From a virus (Duplodnaviria > Heunggongvirae > Uroviricota > Caudoviricetes), in the IMG/VR virus record IMGVR_UViG_2617270938_000004: 11,126 nt of DNA. The stretch is one strand, 5' to 3'. Below the pieces are notes generated by a model that was given only the letters and a program-made list of their open reading frames with translations, did no database searches and had not been told where the DNA came from. Below are positions 1 to 11,126 of this stretch, piece after piece. Every line of letters starts with the position of its first letter. Position 1 is the first letter of the stretch. A program made the translations under genes and the position numbers.

Positions 1-1194
1 ATGATCACCGACACAAAGCTCAGGAAGGCGCTCGGCAAGAAAAGAGATGATATCGAGATTATTTCTGATTCGCACGGGCTCAACGCCAGAATCAGCCAGG
101 CCGGAAAAATATCATTTTTCTATCGGTATCGCTGGGCCGGTAAAGCGGTAAAACTCAATGTTGGTGATTATCCTGCAATGAGTATCACCCAGGCAAGAGA
201 GCGTCGCCAACAATTCAGAAACTGGTTAACTGAGGGACTGGATCCGCGAGAGCAGGTGAAGCTGGATAAGCAGACCCGACAGGAAGCGATGTCCGTTGCC
301 GAAGCGTTCAATTACTGGATTGAAAGGCACTGTATCGCTAACGGGCTAGTTAAAGTCGATTACTATCGCCAGGTGTTTGAGAAACATATCGCCGAACCGA
401 TGAAGAATGTCAAAGTCGATAACACAGCGAAAATGCACTGGATCAACGTCTTCGATTCTATAGAAAGCAGGGTGATGGCTCATTACATGCTTTCGCTGTG
501 CAAACGGGCGTTTAGGTTCTGCGTTAACAGAAGTGTGATCGCCTCAAACCCACTCGAGGGATTACTGCCATCTGATGTCGGGCAAAAGCCTAAAAAGAGA
601 ACTCGCAGGATGGACGATGACGATCTGCGCAAAATCTATCAGTGGTTGAAAAGCCATATGTCGATAGAGTCCGTTTTCCTGGTGAAATTTATTATGCTTA
701 CCGGATGCCGTACGGCTGAGATTCGACTTAGTGAGAGATCATGGTTTCGATTGGATGATAATGAGTGGGTCGTGCCTGCGGGCAGTTATAAAACTCGGGT
801 ACATATTAGAAGGGGACTCTCAGACGCCGCCGTTAACCTGGTCAGAAATCACCTCAAGAAAATAAACACCAATCACCTGGTGACTTCACAACGTAAAATT
901 GATGGCGGGATCAAAGATTCGCCCGTTCATTCACCTGTGGCATCCAATTACGCCCGTTCTATTTGGAATGGAACAGGTATGGCAGAGTGGTCGCTTCATG
1001 ATATGAGGCGGACGATAGCCACAAATCTCTCTGAGTTAGGTTGCCCGCCGCACGTAATTGAAAAGCTGCTCGGGCATCAGATGGTGGGGGTTATGGCGCA
1101 TTACAACCTTCATGACTATATCGATGATCAGAAACACTGGCTCCGCGTTTGGCAGAGCCATCTTGAAGAGATCATCGGAGAGCCCTTCAGTTAA
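1..1194 (+). CDS. int: Tyrosine recombinase / phage integrase, P4-type
   Basis: 397-aa ORF. N-terminus '[33 protein letters not shown]' resembles the arm-binding domain of P4-family integrases. Catalytic-domain signatures are present: 'TGCRTAEI' (Arg), 'HDMRRT' (His-x-x-Arg), 'LLGHQ...MAHYNLHDY' (His/Tyr). Stop TAA at 1192-1194. Upstream RBS and att site are outside the window. Confidence 0.9.
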
Positions 1195-1388
1195 TTTATC
1201 TTCTTTTTATCCTCCCACTCTTTGATTGACTCAGAGCGCCAGCGGTTAGGGTTGCCGGGCCAGTCAGGGGGTGGGAACGGGCATACGAAGCCCCGAGGCA
1301 TTGTGTCTGCACTTTGCCATGACCAAAGGGTTTTGCGTGAAATTTTGTAGCGACTGGTCAGGTCTGACGTTACCAAAATATCATCCAT
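1191..1388 (-). CDS. alpA: AlpA-family prophage regulator / excisionase-like HTH protein
   Basis: The ATG at 1388-1386 gives a 65-aa protein '[59 protein letters not shown]', which fits the AlpA pattern (HTH, then FP-P, then W-x-x-E-x-x-W). The ORF-track start at 1433 is a TTG with no RBS; the ATG at 1388 is preceded by a purine-rich 'AGAGAGAG'. The stop overlaps the int stop. Confidence 0.7.
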
Positions 1389-1429
1389 AGCTCTCTCTAG
1401 TTGCCCGTTCGGGCCATTCAAAATCTTTT

Positions 1430-1672
1430 TCAACCAACCTGCCCGGGCAGGGAGCGGAGACGGCGCATGCCGGTCATCGCTGTGGCCACGTAGCTCGCCT
1501 TTCGGTTCACCACCTCCACCCAGACTTTCACGCCTTCAACCTTCACCGTATAAGTCTCTTTCATCTTGCTTCGCCCATAGTCGCCATATGTTTGCAAGTG
1601 AGCTGCCAGCGCGATGTCGCATGCTTGGCGAGCTAAAGGTGATTGCTTACTTCCTCGATTGATCAGTCGCAT
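1430..1672 (-). CDS. Hypothetical small protein (80 aa) in the recombination operon
   Basis: ATG at 1672-1670 preceded by a strong Shine-Dalgarno 'AAGGAG' with a roughly 6-nt spacer (reverse complement of 1673-1684). It sits between the RecT-like and AlpA-like genes on the same strand. No family recognised by eye. Confidence 0.55.
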   Translation of the reverse strand: MRLINRGSKQSPLARQACDIALAAHLQTYGDYGRSKMKETYTVKVEGVKVWVEVVNRKASYVATAMTGMRRLRSLPGQVG

Positions 1673-1710
1673 ATAATCTCCTTGAGGGAGGGTTACCCCT
1701 CCCGGTCTCG

Positions 1711-2829
1711 TCAGGCCACGTATTCCGGTTTCATATCCGCCAGGGTGATGCTGAATTGATCGTGCAGTTCATCGCCTAAGTGACGCTTTGAAGATGCAAG
1801 CATGCGCTCGGCTTCAGCGAACCGTTCGGCTGCATGCGGCTCGTCGGGCTGGGGCAGGGATTTAATAGCCTCCTCAACCTTGTTGCGTGCATCCACTAGG
1901 TAATAACGCTTTACGGCTTTGTTTTTCAGCTCGGTGAATAGTGCGGATCCCAGCGTAGCTTTCGCCGTTTCAATGTCGGCACGCAGCGATTTGGCGCTAT
2001 CCACGTCCTGAGCAGATTCGATGCGTTCGCGGAAATCATCGGCAAGAGAGTCGACATTTACCGACGATTCCTGTGCGCTTTGCGTGGTTGTGACGGTGTC
2101 ACCTGAGATATCAGCCAGGCTAACGCGTTGCGGCGTTGGGTTGATCTCTTTTTCTGTGCGCTGTTCAATCTCATCAGGGGTGTACACACCAAGAACAACT
2201 GCAGGGCAATACAGGCGCGCCCAGTATTTGAGTGCCAGATAAGCGATCTGCTGTTTCGGGTTTGATACCCAAAGTGGAGAATTACGTGTGATTACGCTGG
2301 AGAGGAAAACAGGCTCTCCCCAGGTGATATCACTTTCACCGCGAATAACGGCACCTACCCGTACCGACAGTCCTTGTTCATCAGCACTTTCCCAACCGCG
2401 TACCATTTCTTTCTTGTCGTACGTCCCGCCACCTTTCGCAGGCTTTTTAACGGTTATCTCGCGGCTGCTGGCACATTTCGACCAGTCGCCCTCGTACTCA
2501 TAGTGAAAGCGGCCAACGATGGCGTTTGAGCTGGAGATCACCGCATTAACCAGTTGCGCTTCGTATCCCAGGACACCGTTAACCAGGTGCGTCTTTTGCG
2601 CCACGGCGTAAGGGTTCATACCCCACTGCATCGCCTGCATGATGATGGCCATGCAGTCTGCCGGATTGCCGCGGAGGTGCTCAGGCACCGTTACGGCTGC
2701 CTGTGCCATCAACCCGGCGACAGACTGAAGCTGGGTTAAAGCCTGCACGTTGAAAATGGCATTGCTGGCTGAGATCGTGTTTGGAGTCTGCTGTTCAGCG
2801 GTTACGATATTCGTGTTTTCCATCATCAT
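1711..2829 (-). CDS. RecT/Bet-family single-strand annealing protein
   Basis: 372 aa. Segments 'GNPADCMAIIMQAMQWGMNPYAVAQKTHLV' and 'LWVSNPKQQIAYLALKYWARLYCPAVVLGVYTPDEIE' parallel lambda Bet as I remember it ('...FIALLIVANQYGLNPWTKEIYAF...', '...PWQSHPKRMLRHKAMIQCARLAFGFAGIYDKDEAE'). RBS 'AAGGGGA' lies directly upstream of the ATG triplet at 2829-2821, and the upstream gene's stop is only 5 nt away. Confidence 0.8.
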   Translation of the reverse strand: MMMENTNIVTAEQQTPNTISASNAIFNVQALTQLQSVAGLMAQAAVTVPEHLRGNPADCMAIIMQAMQWGMNPYAVAQKTHLVNGVLGYEAQLVNAVISSSNAIVGRFHYEYEGDWSKCASSREITVKKPAKGGGTYDKKEMVRGWESADEQGLSVRVGAVIRGESDITWGEPVFLSSVITRNSPLWVSNPKQQIAYLALKYWARLYCPAVVLGVYTPDEIEQRTEKEINPTPQRVSLADISGDTVTTTQSAQESSVNVDSLADDFRERIESAQDVDSAKSLRADIETAKATLGSALFTELKNKAVKRYYLVDARNKVEEAIKSLPQPDEPHAAERFAEAERMLASSKRHLGDELHDQFSITLADMKPEYVA

Positions 2830-2834
2830 TCCCC

Positions 2835-3704
2835 TTATGCCTGAGTACGCAGCGCTTCAAGGCGGCGCAGGTCGAAGTCGTTCAGTTCGTCGGTGTAGTC
2901 AGCAGTGATTGGCGCTGGCCATTCACCTGTGTCGAATCCGGTTGCGATATTGCGCATCGCTTTGCGGTACTCGAGCATACCCAGCTCCAGTAGTTCAGCG
3001 GATGCCTCGATGATGGCGATCCAGTGGTAGTTCTCGTCTTTGTTGACGAAAATCCAGAAGAACTGATCCAGCGCTGCGGTTTCGCAGTACATAGCCGCGC
3101 TCAGGTGATAATCACGTTCAATAATTTCCCGGTGTAGCCTGGCGCGCAGGCTTTCCTGCTTAACATTCCACATGCTGATGGTTTTCAGGTCAGCACCGAT
3201 ACGCACGCCGTCTAGGTCGATCTCAAGGTCAGGGCGCACACGAACTTCCAGTCCCGTCTCCTCGTCAAAGCCAAAGTAGCTCACCTCAACGGCGCGGCTC
3301 GGGTGGGTTAGCAGCATGCCTGCGGTCGGGTGCGAGAGCAGTGCTGACTGAATTGCCTGCGCGGTGGCAAGTTGCTGGTGGGTAACCAGCACTTTCCCTT
3401 CCGGGTTGTTGCGCCACGCATCGAGCAGCTCGTCGGCGAACACTGCATCTGGTTTGACTGCCTTCACGGCCTGAATCAGATCGGCCTTCGTGCCAGAGAC
3501 TTTCAGCGGTTGCAGCTTCTGAGCTTCCTGCGCGACCAGGTCAGGATTGATAATCGCAAGTTGTTCGAGTAGTGCGTCGCGGCTGCCGCTGGTTTTAATC
3601 TGCGCTGGCAGGGTGGCGTTGTACTCTTTGATGCACGCCTTCATTGCTGTTGCTGTCTTCTTCTGATCTGCATCGATACGTTGGAATTCAGCTGGCAGCG
3701 CCAT
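2835..3704 (-). CDS. PD-(D/E)XK-superfamily exonuclease (RecE/YqaJ-like partner of the annealing protein)
   Basis: Motif 'VEVSYFGFDEETGLEVRVRPDLEIDLDGVRIGADLKTIS' fits the E...PD...(D/E)xK nuclease core. The gene is immediately upstream of, and co-oriented with, the RecT-like gene. Start placed at the ATG at 3704-3702 ('MALPAEFQ...'); the ORF track extends to a GTG at 3764, which would overlap the divergent GP46-like gene. Confidence 0.7.
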   Translation of the reverse strand: MALPAEFQRIDADQKKTATAMKACIKEYNATLPAQIKTSGSRDALLEQLAIINPDLVAQEAQKLQPLKVSGTKADLIQAVKAVKPDAVFADELLDAWRNNPEGKVLVTHQQLATAQAIQSALLSHPTAGMLLTHPSRAVEVSYFGFDEETGLEVRVRPDLEIDLDGVRIGADLKTISMWNVKQESLRARLHREIIERDYHLSAAMYCETAALDQFFWIFVNKDENYHWIAIIEASAELLELGMLEYRKAMRNIATGFDTGEWPAPITADYTDELNDFDLRRLEALRTQA

Positions 3705-3709
3705 ATAGT
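3681..3709 (+). promoter_or_regulatory. Candidate sigma70-like promoter (TTGGAA-N17-TATAGT) reading toward the baseplate genes
   Basis: 'ttggaa' at 3681-3686 and 'tatagt' at 3704-3709, separated by 17 nt, about 50 nt upstream of the ATG at 3759. Pattern match only. Confidence 0.2.
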
Positions 3710-3758
3710 TCTGCGCCGTTTCATCCAGGCTAACGGCGTACTGACATCTGAGAATGAT

Positions 3759-4121
3759 ATGCACACGGCCATAATTATCAGTTTGTTTACTGACGGACTG
3801 GCGCGCGCTGATGATGATTATGAAGGAACTGACCGCCGCGGCTGGTGGGGGGATCTGGACAACGACCGGAATATTGGCTCAAGGCTGTGGCTACTGCGGC
3901 GTGAAAAACTGACGCGCGAAGTGGCGATGAGAGCTGAAGATTATGCCGAAGAGGCTCTGGCCTGGATGAAGTCGGATGGTATTGCAGCAGCGATAGAGGC
4001 TCAGTCAGAGATTGTTTTCCCGAATAGGCTGAACCTCATCATCCGGTATTTGCCGCCGGCGGGGGACTGGCAGGAGTTCAAATTCTTCTGGCTATGGGAG
4101 CAACTGAATAATGCCATTTAA
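3759..4121 (+). CDS. Phage GP46-family baseplate protein (Mu gp46-like)
   Basis: 'AIIISLFTDGLARADDDYEGTDRRGWWGDLDNDRNIGSRLWLLRREKLT' matches the GP46 family signature (SLFTD...RRGWWGD...GSRLWLL). First ATG in frame is at 3759; the ORF-track start at 3681 is a TTG. The N-terminus may be shortened relative to family members. Confidence 0.7.
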   Translation: MHTAIIISLFTDGLARADDDYEGTDRRGWWGDLDNDRNIGSRLWLLRREKLTREVAMRAEDYAEEALAWMKSDGIAAAIEAQSEIVFPNRLNLIIRYLPPAGDWQEFKFFWLWEQLNNAI

Positions 4122-5259
4122 GCGGAAAACACTGAGCGAGCTCCGGCAGGAGAATCGCCAGTTTATGCAGGCAGAGCTTGAAAGTGTTGGCGCGCTGTTA
4201 CGGTTTGGCAACCTTAAGGTGCTCGCTGATATGGATGCGGGCATGGCCCATCTGCACTACGCCTACCTGGATTATATTGCCCGTCAGAGCACGCCTTTCA
4301 CCTCTACCGATGAGTGGCTTGCCGGATGGATGGCGCTAAAGCAGATTTACCGAAAAGCCGCAACGGCAGCACGCTCTCCGGCGGCGACCGTTACCGGAAC
4401 GCCGGGGAAAACACTGTCAAAAGGGGCGGTGTTAAACCGTGATGATGGTTACCAGTACACAACCGATGATGCCATAACGATAAACACTGCTGGCAGTGCG
4501 TCGGTTGCTGTAACAGCGGTTTTGCCGGATATCACAGACGATGTGACAGGAGGAGGCACTTCCGGAAATGCCGATGCTGGCACCATTCTTACACTGGATG
4601 CTAATGCCCCCGGCATAGACAGCTCGGTTACGCTGATTGAGCCCGCCACCGGCGGCGCCAACATTGAAAGTGAAGAGGATTTCCGATTACGTGGTCTGCT
4701 GGCGTATCAGAATCCCCCGCAGGGCGGGAGTGACACTGATTATAAAAGCTGGGCTTTATCCGTGTCGGGGATCACCAGGGCATGGATACGGCGCCGGGGG
4801 ATGGGGCCGGGTACCGTGGTGATTTACATCATGTGCGACGGCGATGATAAAACCAATCATGGATTCCCTGCAGGAACTGACGGTGTCTCTCAACTGGAAG
4901 AGTGGGGGGCTGTAAAAGCCACCGGGGATCAGGGGAGAGTTGCCGATTATATGTATCCGCTTGCGCCGGTTACCTCCCTTAACTATGTCTGCTCTCCCAT
5001 CGAACGCGTTATCGATTTTGAAATAAGCGGGATATCTGATGCCGACAGCGCAACGACTGCGGCCATTGCTGATGCGATTGACGGGGTATTGTTTGAATCT
5101 GCTAACCCGCTCGGCACAGGGAAAATTTACCTTTCAGATCTCAACCGTGCGATAGGGGATGTTGCCGGTACTTCAGGTTATATCCTTGTGTCGCCTTCTG
5201 CGAATATTGAGCCGGGAGTTGGGGAGCTGGCTGTTCGTGGTGAGGTGAACTACACATGA
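4111..5259 (+). CDS. Baseplate J-like protein (Mu gp47 / e14 JayE-like)
   Basis: 382-aa ORF whose start overlaps the GP46-like gene by 11 nt. Order GP46-J-DUF2313 is as in Mu-like and e14-like tail modules. Judged Baseplate_J-like by overall similarity; HMM confirmation needed. Confidence 0.8.
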   Translation: MPFKRKTLSELRQENRQFMQAELESVGALLRFGNLKVLADMDAGMAHLHYAYLDYIARQSTPFTSTDEWLAGWMALKQIYRKAATAARSPAATVTGTPGKTLSKGAVLNRDDGYQYTTDDAITINTAGSASVAVTAVLPDITDDVTGGGTSGNADAGTILTLDANAPGIDSSVTLIEPATGGANIESEEDFRLRGLLAYQNPPQGGSDTDYKSWALSVSGITRAWIRRRGMGPGTVVIYIMCDGDDKTNHGFPAGTDGVSQLEEWGAVKATGDQGRVADYMYPLAPVTSLNYVCSPIERVIDFEISGISDADSATTAAIADAIDGVLFESANPLGTGKIYLSDLNRAIGDVAGTSGYILVSPSANIEPGVGELAVRGEVNYT

Positions 5260-5930
5260 GCCTTTTCTCAACAGACGATTATCAGAAGGCACTGCAGGCG
5301 CTTATCCCCACCGGCCGAGCGTGGACACGGGATCCAAAAGCTGTTCAGGCCGCTGTACTGCGGGCCATTGCGGCCAGTTTCCAGCGAAGTGATAACGACG
5401 CACTTGCATTGCTGCGCGGTGCCTTTCCAAAAACTGCGACGATTATGCTCACCGAGTGGGAAAAAACACTCGGCTTACCTGATGATTGCTCAATTGGCGA
5501 AGTGGATACGATTGCGAAGCGTCAGTCTGCCATTGTATCGAAACTCATCAGCACCGGCGGGCAGTCAAAGAGCTATTTCATCAGTATTGCCGCAGCAATG
5601 GGTTATACGATTTCGATTAAGGAATACCGGCAGGCGCGTGCTGGCTTATCGGTATGTGGTGACGGGCTAAATGGGGATGACTGGCCATTTGTCTGGCTGG
5701 TAGAGGCAGAAGACACAACGATAACTTATGCCCGTGCAGGTCTGAGTTATTGCGGCGATCCATTACGCTCCTGGGGTAATCGCCAGCTTGAGTGCCGGAT
5801 AAATGCCCTTGCCCCCTCATACACCCTGGTGAAATTTGGCTATATCTATTTCGGTTTTAACGATGAGGGGGTTTACGAAGTCACGCCTGAGTTTGCCAGA
5901 ATATTTGATATCGCTTCCGGTTACGTTTAA
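5256..5930 (+). CDS. Phage tail protein, YmfQ/DUF2313 family (Mu gp48-like)
   Basis: 224 aa with an ATGA start/stop overlap with the upstream J-like gene (ATG 5256-5258, TGA 5257-5259). N-terminus 'MSLFSTDDYQKALQALIPTGRAWTRDP' resembles the YmfQ family. It lies directly upstream of a tail fibre gene. Confidence 0.8.
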   Translation: MSLFSTDDYQKALQALIPTGRAWTRDPKAVQAAVLRAIAASFQRSDNDALALLRGAFPKTATIMLTEWEKTLGLPDDCSIGEVDTIAKRQSAIVSKLISTGGQSKSYFISIAAAMGYTISIKEYRQARAGLSVCGDGLNGDDWPFVWLVEAEDTTITYARAGLSYCGDPLRSWGNRQLECRINALAPSYTLVKFGYIYFGFNDEGVYEVTPEFARIFDIASGYV

Positions 5931-5956
5931 TTCAGACATTTAAAAAGAAGGTTTAT

Positions 5957-6742
5957 ATGAGAAAAGTTGGCAGTACAACTGACACCGCTGATGCTAATGG
6001 TGAATACACTAATGGTAATGTCGCTAATGGTATTTCACCGACAATAATTAATGCTGAGATGATGAATACCTTTCAGCGTGAGCTGGTAAACGTTGTTGAG
6101 GGCGCGGGGCTTGAGCTTGATCCTGATGATGATTCACAGGTTCTTAAAGCGATTGGTGGCGGTCGCCTGCTTAATATTGTCACCTTTACTAAGTCAGGGA
6201 CTTACACTCCAACTAAAGGGACGAAAAGAGTGCGGGTGAAAGTTTGGGGAGCGGGGGGAGGTGGCCAGAATGCTCCAGTTAGTGTGGGCGCATCTGGAGG
6301 TTGTGCTGGTGGATTTTCGGAAGGGTTATTTAATATTTCTGATAACGAAACTATATCTGTGACGATAGGTACTGGTGGCAGTGCTGTTGCTGCTGGTGTC
6401 TCGTCTAAAGGCGGGAATGGTGGTGATACAAGGTTCGGGAGTTTAATCTCAGCTACTGGAGGGAGTGGTGGCGGGGCTACAGTTCCTGCTGGAGGTATCG
6501 GAAGTGGCGGGAACATTTTAAATATTACTGGCGGAATATCTCAAGGTGGTCTGTATTATGGTTCTGATGCTTTTATTGGCGGGGCTGGGGGATCTGCATT
6601 TTCATCAACGGGTGGCAATGGCCACTTCGGTAGTTCTGGCGATGATGGCGGTTTCCCCGGCTCAGGTGGTGCCGGGGGGAATGGTAACTATTCATCAGGA
6701 AAAGGAGCGAATGGTTTAGTTTACCTTGAAGAGTTTTCCTGA
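5957..6742 (+). CDS. Tail fibre protein with conserved N-terminal fibre domain and glycine-rich C-terminal region
   Basis: 261 aa. RBS 'GAAGG' 5 nt before the ATG. N-terminus 'GISPTIINAEMMNTFQRELVNVVEGAGLELDPDDDSQVLKAIGG' matches the conserved tail-fibre N-terminal motif seen in P2/Mu/e14-type fibres. C-terminal 170 aa is Gly-rich ('VKVWGAGGGGQN...GGSGGGATVPAGGIGSGGN...'). Codon usage is AT-rich relative to the upstream baseplate genes. Confidence 0.75.
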   Translation: MRKVGSTTDTADANGEYTNGNVANGISPTIINAEMMNTFQRELVNVVEGAGLELDPDDDSQVLKAIGGGRLLNIVTFTKSGTYTPTKGTKRVRVKVWGAGGGGQNAPVSVGASGGCAGGFSEGLFNISDNETISVTIGTGGSAVAAGVSSKGGNGGDTRFGSLISATGGSGGGATVPAGGIGSGGNILNITGGISQGGLYYGSDAFIGGAGGSAFSSTGGNGHFGSSGDDGGFPGSGGAGGNGNYSSGKGANGLVYLEEFS

Positions 6743-7812
6743 TTATTTTTGCTTTGAGCGTCCGCCCTTATTTTTGCTCTAATTTTAATTAGTGGCTTTT
6801 CTATTAATATTACACAAACGATCCCAAGTGCAATTGATATTGGGTAGCCTAATAAAAAGATGGATAAGCCACGATTTTCACCACCAATAGCAAGCCATGC
6901 TAGAAATCCACCAAAATATTGACAAAGAAAAATTGGATAGGCCAGGTCACCAAACCACTTGAGTATTTTCTCAAGATGTATGTTTGTCTTTATTTTTAAT
7001 AATACCAGGGTTGTAAACAATGCTATTACATTATTGGTGTAGTAAAGTATTATGTTGTACTGACCTAATGCATTAATTGTATATAAATGCCAATTGGTAA
7101 TAAAAATCCCGATGCAAATAAATGTTATTAAAAAAGCTTTGTGTGGAGAAAGATACATAGCTTTGAACTTTCTATGGGCAAAATAACCCAGAGAACCCAT
7201 GCTAAAAGGAAGTGTTGCAGCAAGGAATGGGAAATACGCCATATCAAAAGAATGGTGTACTACATATACGTAAGCATGATAAAGCAGTGAAAGCAGAATC
7301 GACGTAATGGCTGTAAATTTATTTCGGGCTATGAAAAGCCACAATAAAAAATAACATGTTATCTCAACACCCACTGACCATGATGATGTGACTATTCTGA
7401 ATCTATTACCATCAATAGCAAAGTGATAAATGGATGAAAAGGCACCGAATGGATTTGCTACAGCATTATCAGAAAGGAAAGCCCAGGGGAAGATTAAGAG
7501 GTTTCCTAATAAATCTCCAGGTAAGAAATTGCCTGTCCAGTTTGAGTGGAATTCCTTTGCGGATGGAATTAATTTTATAATAAGAAAGCCCATGACGAGA
7601 AAAAATATATATGCCGGGAATAACCTCAGCATTCTATTTTTCCAAAACATAGAGAAGTTGAACTTGTATGTTTCATGCAAAATGTATGTTATTAAAAAAC
7701 CACTAATAACATAGAAGCAATTCACTGCAAAGTTGCCAAGTGCAGGTATGCGAGCCGTTAAGTGAAAAGCAATGACGCACGATGCCAAAAAAAACCTTAT
7801 TAGGCCAAGCAT
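6721..7812 (-). CDS. Acyltransferase family 3 integral membrane protein (O-antigen / polysaccharide O-acetyltransferase-like, Oac/OafA-type)
   Basis: 363 aa and highly hydrophobic. Family hallmarks: 'FHLTARIPALGNFAVNCFYVISGFLITY' and 'FWKNRMLRLFPAYIFF', comparable to the 'G-x-x-GVD-x-FFV-x-SGFLIT' and 'R-x-x-R-I-x-PxY' motifs. The 3' end overlaps the convergent tail fibre gene by 22 bp. Confidence 0.85.
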   Translation of the reverse strand: MLGLIRFFLASCVIAFHLTARIPALGNFAVNCFYVISGFLITYILHETYKFNFSMFWKNRMLRLFPAYIFFLVMGFLIIKLIPSAKEFHSNWTGNFLPGDLLGNLLIFPWAFLSDNAVANPFGAFSSIYHFAIDGNRFRIVTSSWSVGVEITCYFLLWLFIARNKFTAITSILLSLLYHAYVYVVHHSFDMAYFPFLAATLPFSMGSLGYFAHRKFKAMYLSPHKAFLITFICIGIFITNWHLYTINALGQYNIILYYTNNVIALFTTLVLLKIKTNIHLEKILKWFGDLAYPIFLCQYFGGFLAWLAIGGENRGLSIFLLGYPISIALGIVCVILIEKPLIKIRAKIRADAQSKNNQENSSR

Positions 7813-8075
7813 TATTTTATCTCCGCGCCAATATCGCGCATTTTATTTATTACATTGTTAAGTTGCTCATCAGACAGAACAAGCTGAGCTGCAATATAAA
7901 ACAGTATGTGTCTTGACATTACCCTGGGGCTCTCTCCGCCAGTGTATTTCCGCCATTGGCTATCGCTGGCTACACCTGCGAGCCCTGCCATTTGGTTTCC
8001 GGAGTAATTTAGTGCGGATTTCAGTCTGGCTAAATCTTCCTGCGTTGGAGGGGTGTATTTATTTATTAAAATCAT
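7812..8075 (-). CDS. XRE-like helix-turn-helix DNA-binding protein, co-transcribed upstream of the acyltransferase
   Basis: 87 aa from the ATG at 8075-8073. 'TQEDLARLKSALNYSGNQMAGLAGVASDSQWRKYTGGE' fits a Cro/C1-type HTH. Its stop overlaps the acyltransferase start in a TAATG arrangement (7810-7814, minus strand). An 87-codon ORF in AT-rich DNA is unlikely by chance. The ORF-track start at 8099 is a GTG without RBS. Confidence 0.55.
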   Translation of the reverse strand: MILINKYTPPTQEDLARLKSALNYSGNQMAGLAGVASDSQWRKYTGGESPRVMSRHILFYIAAQLVLSDEQLNNVINKMRDIGAEIK

Positions 8076-8107
8076 TCTCTTATTTAACCGTTTAAACACG
8101 TAAGGCG

Positions 8108-8136
8108 ATGTTAGCCCTGAAGGGGCGGGGCGTCAA
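8108..8136 (-). promoter_or_regulatory. Candidate sigma70-like promoter (TTGACG-N17-TAACAT on the minus strand) for the HTH-acyltransferase operon
   Basis: Reverse complement of 8131-8136 is 'TTGACG' and of 8108-8113 is 'TAACAT', with a 17-nt spacer, about 33 nt upstream of the ATG at 8075. Pattern match only. Confidence 0.2.
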
Positions 8137-8176
8137 TCTTAATTGCTTCATTGAAAAGATGAAGACAGGAACAGGT

Positions 8177-10360
8177 ATGGACAAAAGATATAATACCGGC
8201 AATCCAAGACCTTCAAATAGCATGAAGGATCTGAATGATAACGCCCTGGCGTACGATGATTTCCTGAACAGCGAAAGAGATACTTTTATAGATCGTTTTG
8301 GTAACGCCCAGGATACGATAATTGGGGCTACTAAAAAAATGGCAGCTGCTACCGACGCTGTTATTGATGAAGCCCGCCAAAACCTGATCCCTCTGAGCAA
8401 GCAATACATGACGCTTGCTGATGCACAGGCAGATATTGCTAATATCCCCGAGGGGAGCACTACTTATTATCGCAGCCCGGATGACAGCGCCCTCGCGATC
8501 GAGGTCATGAACGTTGGCGGAACGTTGCAGCCAACCGGTCGCAGGATGATTTCTGCTGGATATGTTGACGCGCTGAGAGATTTGGTTGCCACTGAACTGG
8601 CGAAAATTATGGCTTTCGGTGCTGCTCAGACTACCGATGCATACCCAGATATTGCTGAGCTCATTCTTGATAGTGTAGGGCATGCCGTTTATCGCCGTTA
8701 TACCGATGGCACGAGCCAGTTTCCGGCATTGATGATTGGTTCAGGGATTGAGCTTGTGCAAATTGCAGGTGGAGGATTTGTCTGCCAGATGCGCGCCACT
8801 GGTGAAGAAATATTTAACATTTCTGCCCTTGGCAATCTGACACATGGCAGCCTGACCACGTGGTTTGCTGATGATGACAGTGTCAGTGACTATTCTGAAA
8901 TACATATGGACGGACAGGGGAGAATTTTTCGGCGAGTTCGCACAGATGGTACCGTGGAGCAGCTGGGCGATGACACACCTGATGATGACGCCTCTGAATT
9001 CCCAATGGTTGCTTCAGTTGATGGAAATATCATTGCGGTAGATGGCAGCGATGTAACTCAGATCACGAACGACTCCGGAGTTTCAAATATTGCGCCAGTG
9101 GCATATGCGGAATTTTTGCGTTATTTGTCGAATGTCAGCGGCAACTACATCACTTATCGATCCACTTATGACGGGAATTACCGGGCGCGAGAGTCATTGC
9201 GCTTTCTTATTCACCTGATTATAACTGGTCAGTCTCTTGCTGCAGGCGGTTCAACGCAAGCACAAAGCCCTGTAACGACAACAGCGCAGGCAGATTACGG
9301 CATACTCTCGTTTGAGACCGGCCCGAAAGTCGATTTTAAGTATGACACGCTGAATGAATCGCTCCTTGAGGCTGTCATCCCATGCCGGGAGAATGCTGGG
9401 ACGCGGCCTGGACAGGAGTCGCCATCAAGCGGTATGGCGTTTAAAATTCATGATCTCACCGGGCATACGGTTCTGGTTTCCGATGCGTGCTCATCCGGTA
9501 CTGCAATCGCAGACATTTCATCCGGTTCAGCGACTTTTACTGGTGCAACGAAAATGATTCAGTCAGCTGTAGCCATGGCTGAAAAGTTGGGTATGCAGTA
9601 TGTTCCCGTAATGGTGCTTATCCACGGCAACCAGAATGCAGCAGCAGGCACATCTATATCCAGTTATCGCGCCGCAATGGAGACTCTCCGTGCTCAGTAT
9701 GAGTCTGTCATTAACGCGGCAACAGGAAAAAGCCAGTCGCTTCACATGTTTGTAGGCCAGTTATCTAATACCATTCCATACGGCGGAACTGCCGGTTCGA
9801 CCAAAACTAATAACATCGGTATCGCACAATATCAGGAAGCCCGTGATAACGCATTAATCCATCTTGCCAGCGCACAGTATGCCCGCCCGTATTCAGACGG
9901 TGAGCATCTGACCAGCGCAGGGTATCGGACAGAAGGCGAAGTTATTGGCGCGGTGGTTGGTGGGTGGCTGAATGACAATACAAAATCCGCGCTTGTGCCG
10001 ATAGAGTCTGGTGTTGTGCAGTCAGGAACCACAATCACTATACCAGTGGCGGGTTGTGTTGGTGATCTCGTGATTGACACCTCGAGGGTTACCGATCCAG
10101 GCAACTACGGCTTTGTCCTGACCGGGGCCACAATTGCTTCGGTAGCCGTTAGCGGCAGCGGATCAGCAGCAAAAATAGTTATCACCAAGACCGATTCTAC
10201 CACTGCGACGGCGATATCTTATGCAAGCCAGGGGATTGCCGGACAAAACCCCGGCCCTGTAACCGGTTCGCGCGGGTGTATCAGAGATTCCCAAACAGGG
10301 ACGTCACTATCCGGCCTGCCTCTCTATAACGACCTTTGCGTTTTCTCCATCCAGCTTTAA
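8177..10360 (+). CDS. Putative tail fibre / tailspike-like protein with SGNH-hydrolase (sialate-O-acetylesterase-like) domain
   Basis: Start placed at the ATG at 8177 (AGGA 6 nt upstream); the ORF track begins at 8108. Catalytic-type motifs: 'LIITGQSLAAGGS' (GQS at 9227-9235, the SGNH block I serine), 'VLIHGNQNAAAG' (block III-like), 'DGEHLTSAGYRTEGE' (DxxH block V; Asp 9896-9898, His 9905-9907). No N-terminal signal peptide. C-terminal 130 aa is Thr/Ser/Gly-rich and looks beta-rich. It sits in a tail-fibre locus. Confidence 0.7.
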   Translation: MDKRYNTGNPRPSNSMKDLNDNALAYDDFLNSERDTFIDRFGNAQDTIIGATKKMAAATDAVIDEARQNLIPLSKQYMTLADAQADIANIPEGSTTYYRSPDDSALAIEVMNVGGTLQPTGRRMISAGYVDALRDLVATELAKIMAFGAAQTTDAYPDIAELILDSVGHAVYRRYTDGTSQFPALMIGSGIELVQIAGGGFVCQMRATGEEIFNISALGNLTHGSLTTWFADDDSVSDYSEIHMDGQGRIFRRVRTDGTVEQLGDDTPDDDASEFPMVASVDGNIIAVDGSDVTQITNDSGVSNIAPVAYAEFLRYLSNVSGNYITYRSTYDGNYRARESLRFLIHLIITGQSLAAGGSTQAQSPVTTTAQADYGILSFETGPKVDFKYDTLNESLLEAVIPCRENAGTRPGQESPSSGMAFKIHDLTGHTVLVSDACSSGTAIADISSGSATFTGATKMIQSAVAMAEKLGMQYVPVMVLIHGNQNAAAGTSISSYRAAMETLRAQYESVINAATGKSQSLHMFVGQLSNTIPYGGTAGSTKTNNIGIAQYQEARDNALIHLASAQYARPYSDGEHLTSAGYRTEGEVIGAVVGGWLNDNTKSALVPIESGVVQSGTTITIPVAGCVGDLVIDTSRVTDPGNYGFVLTGATIASVAVSGSGSAAKIVITKTDSTTATAISYASQGIAGQNPGPVTGSRGCIRDSQTGTSLSGLPLYNDLCVFSIQL

Positions 10361-10373
10361 AGGACTGTAAATC

Positions 10374-11126
10374 ATGACTACCCGCTTTTATATTGATAAC
10401 GGTGTGACAGCCACGCGTTACCTTGACACTTACCCTTATCCAAACGACATCACCCAACTTCCGGCTTTAATACCGGGGATTATCCTGCAGGCTGATTTTG
10501 ACGTAAAAGACACTGCATCATTAACCAGAAACCGGGTTGGAGCTGCTATGTCCGTTGTTGGCTCTCCTGTTCTTGGTGATTACGGCGTCAGCCTCACTGA
10601 GGCTAACCACCTGGATACAAACATCGACATAGCAGCATATAACGGCAGCGATCTGACAATGGTGACAATAGCTGTCCATCCAGGGGTAATTGGTGCTGTT
10701 GTGGGCCGGGTGCAGATGAACGCGCCACAGCGTACTCGTGGTACACAAACTACGGCTACAGCGTGGAGAGCTAAATGGTTGACTGCAGCAGGTGCAGCAC
10801 AACAGGCCGACCTTATCCCGTCTACTGCCGCAATTGATGGCGAAATGGCAGTCAGTCGGTTTGTGCGAGACAACGGTAGCGGATCAATGCTGACTAAGCT
10901 TGATCTGCCACGCACATCACAGTCAGCAACCCGCACCGCAGCGACGACTCCTTATGCTGTACCTTCGTCAAAAATTCTGCTGGGCGGTTCTGTCGAGGGA
11001 GCCACGACTGCCACTATCTTCATGCGGGCATGCCTGATTGTATCTAGGGCAATAACGGATGTTGAAATGGCAACTATTTACACCTATTACAAAAATTATT
11101 ATCAGCTGAAAGGCAAAAACATTTAA
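10374..11126 (+). CDS. LamG-like (concanavalin A-like lectin fold) domain protein, putative carbohydrate-binding tail accessory protein
   Basis: 250 aa. RBS 'AGGA' 9 nt upstream, immediately after the esterase stop. C-terminal 'ILLGGSVEGATTATIFMRACLIVSRAITDVEMATIYTYYKNY' resembles the LamG/Laminin_G_3 terminal motif (iG....F.G.IDEvRiYnRALs..Ei..lY). Assignment by motif only. Confidence 0.5.
   Translation: MTTRFYIDNGVTATRYLDTYPYPNDITQLPALIPGIILQADFDVKDTASLTRNRVGAAMSVVGSPVLGDYGVSLTEANHLDTNIDIAAYNGSDLTMVTIAVHPGVIGAVVGRVQMNAPQRTRGTQTTATAWRAKWLTAAGAAQQADLIPSTAAIDGEMAVSRFVRDNGSGSMLTKLDLPRTSQSATRTAATTPYAVPSSKILLGGSVEGATTATIFMRACLIVSRAITDVEMATIYTYYKNYYQLKGKNI

Follow-up and report, generated by a model that had tools for sequence, protein, structure and literature searches.

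If a gene for an enzyme that adds acetyl groups lies next to a gene for one that removes them, do the two products work together? This question is raised by an 11,126-nucleotide stretch of DNA from a tailed phage (Caudoviricetes), IMG/VR record IMGVR_UViG_2617270938_000004, which at its full length is referred to as the window. On the minus strand lies a gene for a predicted membrane acyltransferase of the AT3 family (6721-7812, 363 aa), and on the plus strand lies the gene of a 727-aa tail fibre, fibre 2 (8177-10360), whose head is a SASA-like SGNH esterase domain with predicted activity. The first-pass annotation described the two as the 'writer' and the 'eraser' of a coordinated receptor-editing system, i.e., the prophage AT3 would mark the host polysaccharide and the esterase of its own virions would recognise or remove the same or a neighbouring acetyl group, in the service of exclusion, receptor creation or release. 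Such a co-adapted pair would, if true, be a compact model of phage-driven receptor editing. Here, we find one AT3 allele combined with at least eight fibre heads, and the window head travelling without AT3. AT3 and the esterase head are quite probably not a co-adapted pair, and ordinary module shuffling would account for their neighbourhood.

Independent assortment of the acyltransferase and the fibre 2 head

A megablast search of 5,426 complete E. coli genomes found the AT3 gene in 32 of them, at 98.4% DNA identity or more, and the encoded proteins are 98.3-99.4% identical. The fibre beside AT3 keeps its N-terminus in these 32 genomes, while at least eight different heads follow it. The commonest is a Pfam SASA head (16 genomes, including strain HS). 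Two GDSL types, A and B, are found in 3 and 5 genomes respectively, a TolB-like head in 3, a right-handed beta-helix in 2, and a CotH head, a weakly SASA-like head and the window head in 1 each. A near-invariant acyltransferase is thus found with two esterase families as well as with three non-esterase head types.

The reverse comparison gives the same picture. The window head is present in 3 of the 5,426 genomes and is accompanied by AT3 in one of them; in the other two it belongs to a TipJ-type siphovirus prophage without AT3. In K. pneumoniae, the prophage loci L005-L008 are about 96-97% identical at the DNA level to window positions 8360-11126, and no acyltransferase was found within 8 kb in these loci. 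Their tails are of the siphovirus type, with tape-measure and NlpC/P60 proteins. Such identity suggests that a host-range cassette was recently exchanged across genera and across tail types. A homologue of the head with 71% protein identity is also found, together with its partner gene, in the baseplate cluster of the virulent Klebsiella phage VIK251 (Mydovirus).

A survey of IMG/VR by means of the conserved fibre anchor yielded 80 viral and 6 genome loci, with 62 complete fibres in 38 head clusters. The window-type cluster has five members, and four of these contigs lack AT3. When the SASA-like family (by profile) and Pfam GDSL are counted as esterases, 6 of the 9 clusters that have an AT3 upstream are esterases, compared with 15 of the 27 that have none, i.e., there is no enrichment (36 head clusters, odds ratio 1.6, Fisher p = 0.70).

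The AT3 gene also has an empty counterpart. In Mu-like backbones related to the window prophage, the first fibre gene (fibre 1) is directly followed by fibre 2; in L045 and L047 only about 1 kb separates the two gene starts. No AT3 was found in L043-L045, L047, L049, L051, L052 and L065. Since the empty-site backbones have no room for the cassette, the AT3 cassette is an insertion.

How much of the writer and eraser proposal survives these comparisons? Both enzyme types are present and adjacent, Klebsiella prophages are known to carry acetyltransferases as well as SGNH fibres (PMC13123978), and in raw counts an esterase-type head stands beside AT3 in 25-26 of the 32 AT3-bearing E. coli genomes. 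However, the many heads beside one allele, the occurrence of the head in settings that lack AT3 (Klebsiella siphovirus prophages, a virulent phage and most IMG/VR contigs of its cluster), and the lack of esterase enrichment all argue against a pair. AT3 cassettes moreover occur without any second fibre, and the window copy of the prophage makes no virions, see below. We regard the proposal as improbable.

A looser form of the idea operates on the lineage instead of on the single phage. AT3 would acetylate a shared envelope glycan, e.g., a GlcNAc-containing O-unit, the enterobacterial common antigen or the lipopolysaccharide core, and in this way exclude relatives that use fibre 1, while esterase-headed second fibres of several unrelated SGNH types would strip acetyl shields, that of AT3 among them. 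Such an arms race would explain the raw counts of esterase heads beside AT3; we nevertheless give it, if anything, slightly less credence than the direct pairing.

The esterase head of fibre 2 and its lectin-fold partner

The fibre 2 gene lies downstream of the baseplate genes gp46, J and gp48. The mechanical open reading frame (ORF) begins at 8108, and the start at 8177 is that of the PGAP annotation in the copy of E. coli 20KM2222 (99.8% DNA identity). The product matches PHROG 4201, 'tail fiber protein', with E 1.1e-88, in agreement with its initial description as a large fibre-like protein. Four parts can be distinguished. The N-terminal anchor (aa 1-130, 8177-8566) is common to all head variants and is the site of head exchange. 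From residue 1 to about 130-175 it is 75-93% identical to seven E. coli fibre types and one Klebsiella fibre type that bear other heads, and 338 anchor-related stretches are found in IMG/VR. The middle part (aa 131-340, 8567-9196) is within the exchanged Klebsiella-type segment. The esterase domain (aa 341-602, 9197-9982) is defined by profile, model and catalytic triad, and the C-terminal beta-strand domain (aa 603-727, 9983-10360) by the secondary structure of the AlphaFold2 model. An anchor of the enterobacterial kind, at 61% identity, is also present in a 1,095-bp contig labelled Streptomyces sp. (NZ_JBFBIU010000098.1), which looks like contamination.

The fibre protein alone gave no match in Pfam (at E <= 0.01 and also at E <= 10), in NCBIfam or among PDB sequences; the fold becomes visible only through a profile of its relatives. 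An exhaustive HMMER search with the last 400 residues found 1,664 representative relatives; among the 150 relatives listed, most form the C-terminal domain of a longer protein, about 500-2,300 aa in size. An alignment of 30 relatives contains conserved GQSLA.G, E(T/S)P.SG, HGE.D, Q.SSW and DG.HLT blocks. The profile built from these 30 matches the tailspike of cyanopodophage Pan3 (PDB 9vyh, E 1.6e-26) and also the SASA-type esterases 2apj and 1zmb. In the alignment to 1zmb the GQS, HGE.D and DG.H blocks are in register, and the window motifs stand opposite GQSN and DGIH. Pfam SASA (PF03629) is matched by 20 of the 30 relatives. The profile search thus recovers the SASA family by way of the relatives and not from the fibre protein directly.

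The structure model agrees with the profile. The AlphaFold2 model has a predicted local distance difference test score (pLDDT) of 90.5 and a predicted template-modelling score (pTM) of 0.90, and it shows the SGNH alpha/beta/alpha fold. Using Foldseek, the model is closest to 9vyh (E 5e-20, TM 0.74), followed by the carbohydrate acetylesterase XAC1771 (7kmm, E 8e-12), the mammalian sialic-acid esterase SIAE (8f9o, E 1e-11) and 1zmb (E 2e-7), with weaker matches to the FI8 deacetylase, NanS (3pt5) and several phage fibre proteins. The predicted triad consists of Ser353 in GQS and of Asp574 and His577 in DGEH (numbering of the 727-aa protein), and these columns are conserved in 138/139, 131/148 and 149/149 family representatives, respectively. 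The SGNH core with GQS and DxxH motifs that the first-pass annotation had noticed is therefore borne out by the profile of relatives, the model fold and the triad. The C-terminal beta domain has conserved D307, G318 and F319 columns and aligns with the C-terminus of the Pan3 tailspike; it is probably a binding or trimerisation module.

Could the head be a lectin on an esterase scaffold, i.e., recognise acetylated or other glycans without cleaving them? The third block reads HGNQN in the window, with Asn at the position that is Glu in 131/148 relatives and again Asn at the one that is Asp in 120/148; the missing direct Pfam SASA match would also fit a loss of catalysis. However, Ser353, Asp574, His577 and the Gly of HG are all kept, as are Glu87 and Gln201 (numbering of the 400-aa piece). 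The two Asn residues moreover recur among the representatives (12/148 and 21/148), and P0132, which is 47% identical, has HGNQD. A purely binding head is therefore unlikely, although clearly not negligible.

A different role for the head was considered as well. AT3-only proteins may need an SGNH partner, and WecH can hand acetyl groups to PatB (PMC9558356); AT3 and the head could together form a two-part acetyltransferase in trans, resembling the fused OafA and OatA. The N-terminus of fibre 2 is hydrophilic, has no signal peptide and is a tail-fibre anchor, so the periplasm is not an expected location, and the nearest folds are those of SASA and CE20-type esterases. The head is mostly found without any AT3, and AT3 stands beside non-SGNH heads or without a second fibre. 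Given the lack of a signal peptide and the independent assortment, this two-part enzyme was rejected as having next to no probability.

Directly downstream, at 10374-11126 on the plus strand, lies the gene of a 250-aa protein. The protein has no family match, and its AlphaFold2 model (pLDDT 91) is a concanavalin-like jelly roll. Foldseek ranks the receptor-binding domains (Hc) of the tetanus and botulinum toxins highest, with E about 1e-7. The N-terminal half of Hc is a lectin-like jelly roll. The protein is 95% identical in Klebsiella and 68% identical in phage VIK251, and it always accompanies the window head type, be it in E. coli, Klebsiella, Raoultella or the virulent phage. Behind each of the other head types lies a different, unrelated gene; in the K. 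pneumoniae locus L012, for example, this gene encodes an arabinofuranosidase-like domain.

In the intact form of the prophage (locus L001) a DNA invertase-like recombinase gene is located at L001 25797-26345, about 700 bp past the end of the window. Because of this invertase, inverted repeats that could mark an invertible fibre segment were sought, and none like the known crossover sites was found. A 20-nt inverted repeat with 90% complementarity does occur at L001 24891-24910 and 25430-25449; its left arm corresponds to window positions 10890-10909, and it extends across the end of the 250-aa gene and the small genes that follow.

The acyltransferase cassette and its possible link to fibre 1

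The identification of AT3 as an Acyl_transf_3 membrane protein is secure. The protein matches Pfam PF01757 with E 3.6e-15 (56.3 bits, cut-off 31) over nearly the full length of the profile (positions 6-324 of 326) and PHROG 3333, 'O-acetyltransferase', with E 6.6e-23. A crude hydropathy scan shows several hydrophobic segments along its length. In the translation, R6-x10-H17 and R60-M-L-R63 correspond to the R/K-X10-H motif of the first transmembrane helix and the RXXR motif of the first cytoplasmic loop, both of which a review of AT3 proteins names as essential (PMC9558356). The family scan found no fused SGNH or other domain. The family includes phage O-antigen acetylases, as the first-pass annotation pointed out; a specific relation to those that have been characterised is not seen. 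PHROG 6705, 'O-antigen acetylase', is matched only weakly (E 3.3e-7), and a tblastn search against 50,697 phage records (E <= 1e-3) yielded just one Vibrio phage, 28% identical, besides a few weak matches, with no Sf6, SfII or phiV10 record. Since no relative of AT3 could be detected in the Oac phages that have been characterised, the O-antigen as its substrate is no more than a reasonable guess. A megablast search of window positions 6000-11126 against 50,697 phage genomes likewise gave a single 179-bp match only, and PADLOC defence models matched none of the five proteins searched. The cassette has a guanine-plus-cytosine (G+C) content of 35%, compared with about 50% in both flanks. AT3 is a probable lysogenic-conversion cargo gene, a 'moron'.

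The stretch 6721-8075, earlier described as one AT3 cassette, consists of two genes. Its first gene, 7812-8075 on the minus strand, encodes a separate 87-aa protein. The stop codon of this gene overlaps the AT3 start by one base (TAATG), as can be read directly, and the arrangement is that of a gene translationally coupled to AT3. The 87-aa protein matches PHROG 20491 with E 3.3e-30, and weak matches to HTH_31 and RstR (E about 0.04-0.05) indicate that it is possibly a DNA-binding, helix-turn-helix protein. Upstream of the cassette, a consensus scan found a promoter-like site at 8108-8136 on the minus strand (TTGACG, 17 nt, TAACAT).

The 87-aa gene accompanies 4 of the 7 other AT3 alleles for which the context was read. 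The protein was compared across L012, L015, L022 and L024. The E. coli prophage and K. pneumoniae L012 share it at 99% identity, with only 48% for the coupled AT3, and it is 63-72% identical alongside AT3 alleles of 44-64% identity in several tail types. In another IMG/VR record, IMGVR_UViG_2767802181_000004 (around 3180-4900), the same backbone carries the 87-aa gene at 95% identity, and neither the C-terminal part of the window fibre 1 nor AT3 was detected between the backbone and this gene. The cargo slot of that phage may hold a different cargo.

On its other side, AT3 meets fibre 1, a glycine-rich tail fibre of 261 aa (5957-6742, plus strand; Pfam Gly_rich_2, E 1.3e-9; PHROG tail-fibre families), and the 3' ends of the two genes overlap by 22 nt. 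Relatives of AT3 with 44-64% identity are found in Klebsiella, Pantoea, Serratia, E. coli and other assemblies, on Mu-like, E217-like and lambda-like tails. They are placed antisense directly after the last tail-fibre gene, with one exception, L022, a remnant in which the cassette lies beside the integrase. In at least 4 of the 7 other alleles with context read there is no second fibre. It can be asked, then, whether AT3 is tied to fibre 1 instead, i.e., whether it modifies the fibre-1 receptor and excludes related phages from the lysogen. The analogy is Sf6, whose Oac blocks the Sf6 tailspike.

Several observations fit this idea in addition to the overlap of the genes. The closer AT3 allele goes with the closer fibre 1: L015 has an AT3 of 64% identity and a fibre-1 C-terminal part of 75%, and for L012 the values are 48% for AT3 and 55% for the whole of fibre 1. 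The baseplate genes of L012 are 98.5% identical at the DNA level; this similarity is lost precisely over the fibre-1 C-terminus and the body of AT3, and beyond them the 87-aa gene and the anchor of fibre 2 are again 90% identical. L015 carries the fibre-1 C-terminus, AT3 and the 87-aa gene as a unit on an unrelated E217-like tail that has no second fibre. If anything, therefore, it is the C-terminal part of fibre 1 that varies with the AT3 allele, which hints at a link of AT3 to fibre 1 and not to the esterase fibre. However, there are three comparison points only, physical linkage alone gives co-variation, and in Pantoea, Serratia and lambda-like contexts AT3 relatives are paired with Gp53-like and Peptidase_S74 fibres. 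A functional tie between AT3 and fibre 1 is thus conceivable but doubtful. It is compatible with the reading of the locus as exchangeable modules and would refine it by naming the partner of AT3. The fibre-1 C-terminal part and the AT3 body (window 6227-7615, compared with L012 and L015) seem to be exchanged as one block.

A probable mosaic host-range locus and its known counterparts

Taken as a whole, the locus is best explained as a set of exchangeable modules that stand side by side and whose neighbours are not co-adapted, an explanation we hold with considerable confidence. The stretch is likely the host-range end of the tail module of a prophage, with three separately exchangeable units. 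The first unit is fibre 1, a glycine-rich short fibre. The second is the low-G+C antisense cargo cassette, in which the 87-aa gene is coupled to the AT3-only acyltransferase. We infer that, in the lysogen, transcription of this cassette starts at a promoter of its own and that AT3 O-acylates a surface glycan, as OacA-D and NeaT do, with conversion or exclusion as the outcome. The third unit is fibre 2, a modular side fibre of which the first 130 or so residues would dock to the tail while the head is swappable. Its esterase head would have arrived together with the 250-aa lectin-fold partner from Klebsiella-type phages. By analogy with G7C gp63.1 it would bind and de-O-acetylate capsule or O-antigen during adsorption, and the partner, judging from its modelled fold, would assist it. 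The window head is 94-98% identical to Klebsiella prophage proteins, and because of this near-identity its substrate is suggested to be a Klebsiella-type polysaccharide acetylated by chromosomal enzymes and not by the window AT3. That AT3 and an esterase are adjacent follows, in this explanation, from two properties of the lineage: its two fibre genes have a cargo slot between them, and no other head type is as common in the fibre family as esterase heads.

Several points weigh against this modular reading. The raw counts of esterase heads beside AT3 have been given above, and the enrichment test, with its 36 head clusters, is small and leaves room for a functional link at the level of the lineage. 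The cassette promoter is a consensus match alone, and such sites are no commoner than in shuffled sequence. The substrate of AT3 could be O-antigen, capsule, enterobacterial common antigen, peptidoglycan or something else. The HGNQN block leaves esterase catalysis not certain, and for this locus both activities, acyltransferase and esterase, are predicted ones.

The prophage itself is of a temperate E. coli myovirus type with a Mu-like baseplate and a Rac-like recET region. E. coli 20KM2222 has the intact form, which is about 44 kb long and located between kch and yciI. Window positions 1-3735 are 99.97-100% identical to this prophage and positions 3731-11126 are 99.88% identical, and the two pieces are about 31 kb apart in the 20KM2222 genome. 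The junction, at 3731-3735, lies inside gp46, with the end of a RecE fragment on its left and gp46 on its right, joined across a 5-nt overlap. The roughly 31 kb that are gone hold the replication, lysis, terminase, head, sheath, tube and baseplate-hub genes. Because the head, sheath and lysis genes are among them, the window copy cannot build a virion; it is an internally deleted, defective remnant, as judged from its gene content. The exact junction was found in none of the complete E. coli genomes of the collection. In strain 22F46 a prophage of this type has undergone another, independent deletion, and gp46 is whole there.

To the left of the junction, the ORF map, family scans and the annotation of the matching E. 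coli prophage identify an integrase (1-1194, plus strand), followed by two small ORFs, RecT (1711-2829, minus strand) and the last 300 codons of RecE (2835-3764, minus strand), the latter two with reading frames that stay open. To the right, gp46 (3681-4121, plus strand) has lost about 59 nt of its 5' end and is followed by two further Mu-type baseplate genes, baseplate J (4111-5259) and gp48/YmfQ (5256-5930).

The locus is a well-sampled example of how the host-range module of a temperate phage is assembled, with a fixed AT3 cargo slot and a fibre anchor that accepts many heads. One head and its lectin-fold partner have moved recently among Klebsiella siphoviruses, a virulent Klebsiella myovirus and an E. 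coli myovirus-type prophage. The analysis also adds a SASA-like family of esterase heads with about 1,660 representative clusters; because the window protein is invisible to Pfam and NCBIfam, many acetylesterase heads of this type are probably overlooked when prophage receptor-binding proteins are annotated. The example further suggests caution: adjacent enzymes of 'opposite' activity in mosaic phage loci need a test of co-inheritance before they are read as a system.

Both parts of the locus belong to known kinds of module. On the acyltransferase side, the nearest parallel is NeaT, an AT3 gene of low G+C content that lies antisense, immediately behind the tail-fibre genes, in a P2-like prophage of CFT073 (PMC3573123). 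The two share PF01757, low G+C content, opposite orientation and the position of temperate-phage cargo after tail-fibre genes. The alleles differ (CFT073 does not appear in the set of 32 genomes that megablast matched), and the P2-like tail contrasts with the Mu-like baseplate of the window. No 87-aa upstream partner is reported for NeaT, and the virulence data concern NeaT. OacA-D (Sf6, SfII) and the Oac of phiV10 are likewise AT3-only, carry R/K-X10-H and RXXR and are borne by temperate phages, as reviewed together with the AT3 motifs (PMC9558356). By analogy, the expected role of the window AT3 would be lysogenic conversion or exclusion through glycan O-acetylation. Unlike these genes, the window AT3 lies between two fibre genes and not beside the integrase, and the tblastn search detected no sequence similarity to any AT3 of these phages.

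On the fibre side, the closest solved structure is the Pan3 tailspike 9vyh. The match spans both the esterase and the C-terminal beta domain, and Pan3 too has a virion receptor-binding protein with a GQS...HGE...D..H esterase core. The two differ in that the identity is 17-18%, the Pan3 host is a cyanobacterium and the N-terminal attachment region is another one; a literature search for PDB 9VYH found no paper on the activity of the tailspike. The SASA and CE20-type O-acetylesterases, i.e., XAC1771 (7kmm), SIAE (8f9o), 1zmb, At4g34215 (2apj) and NanS (3pt5), share the fold and the order of motifs with the window head. They are, however, soluble enzymes and not fibre heads, and they have (H/Q)GE.D where the window has HGNQN. 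G7C gp63.1 is not among the best 50 Foldseek matches, and the window head belongs to the SASA-like branch. It is nevertheless G7C gp63.1 and the SGNH fibres of Klebsiella prophages (PMC13123978) that provide the functional analogy, a fibre head that de-O-acetylates a surface polysaccharide without depolymerising it.

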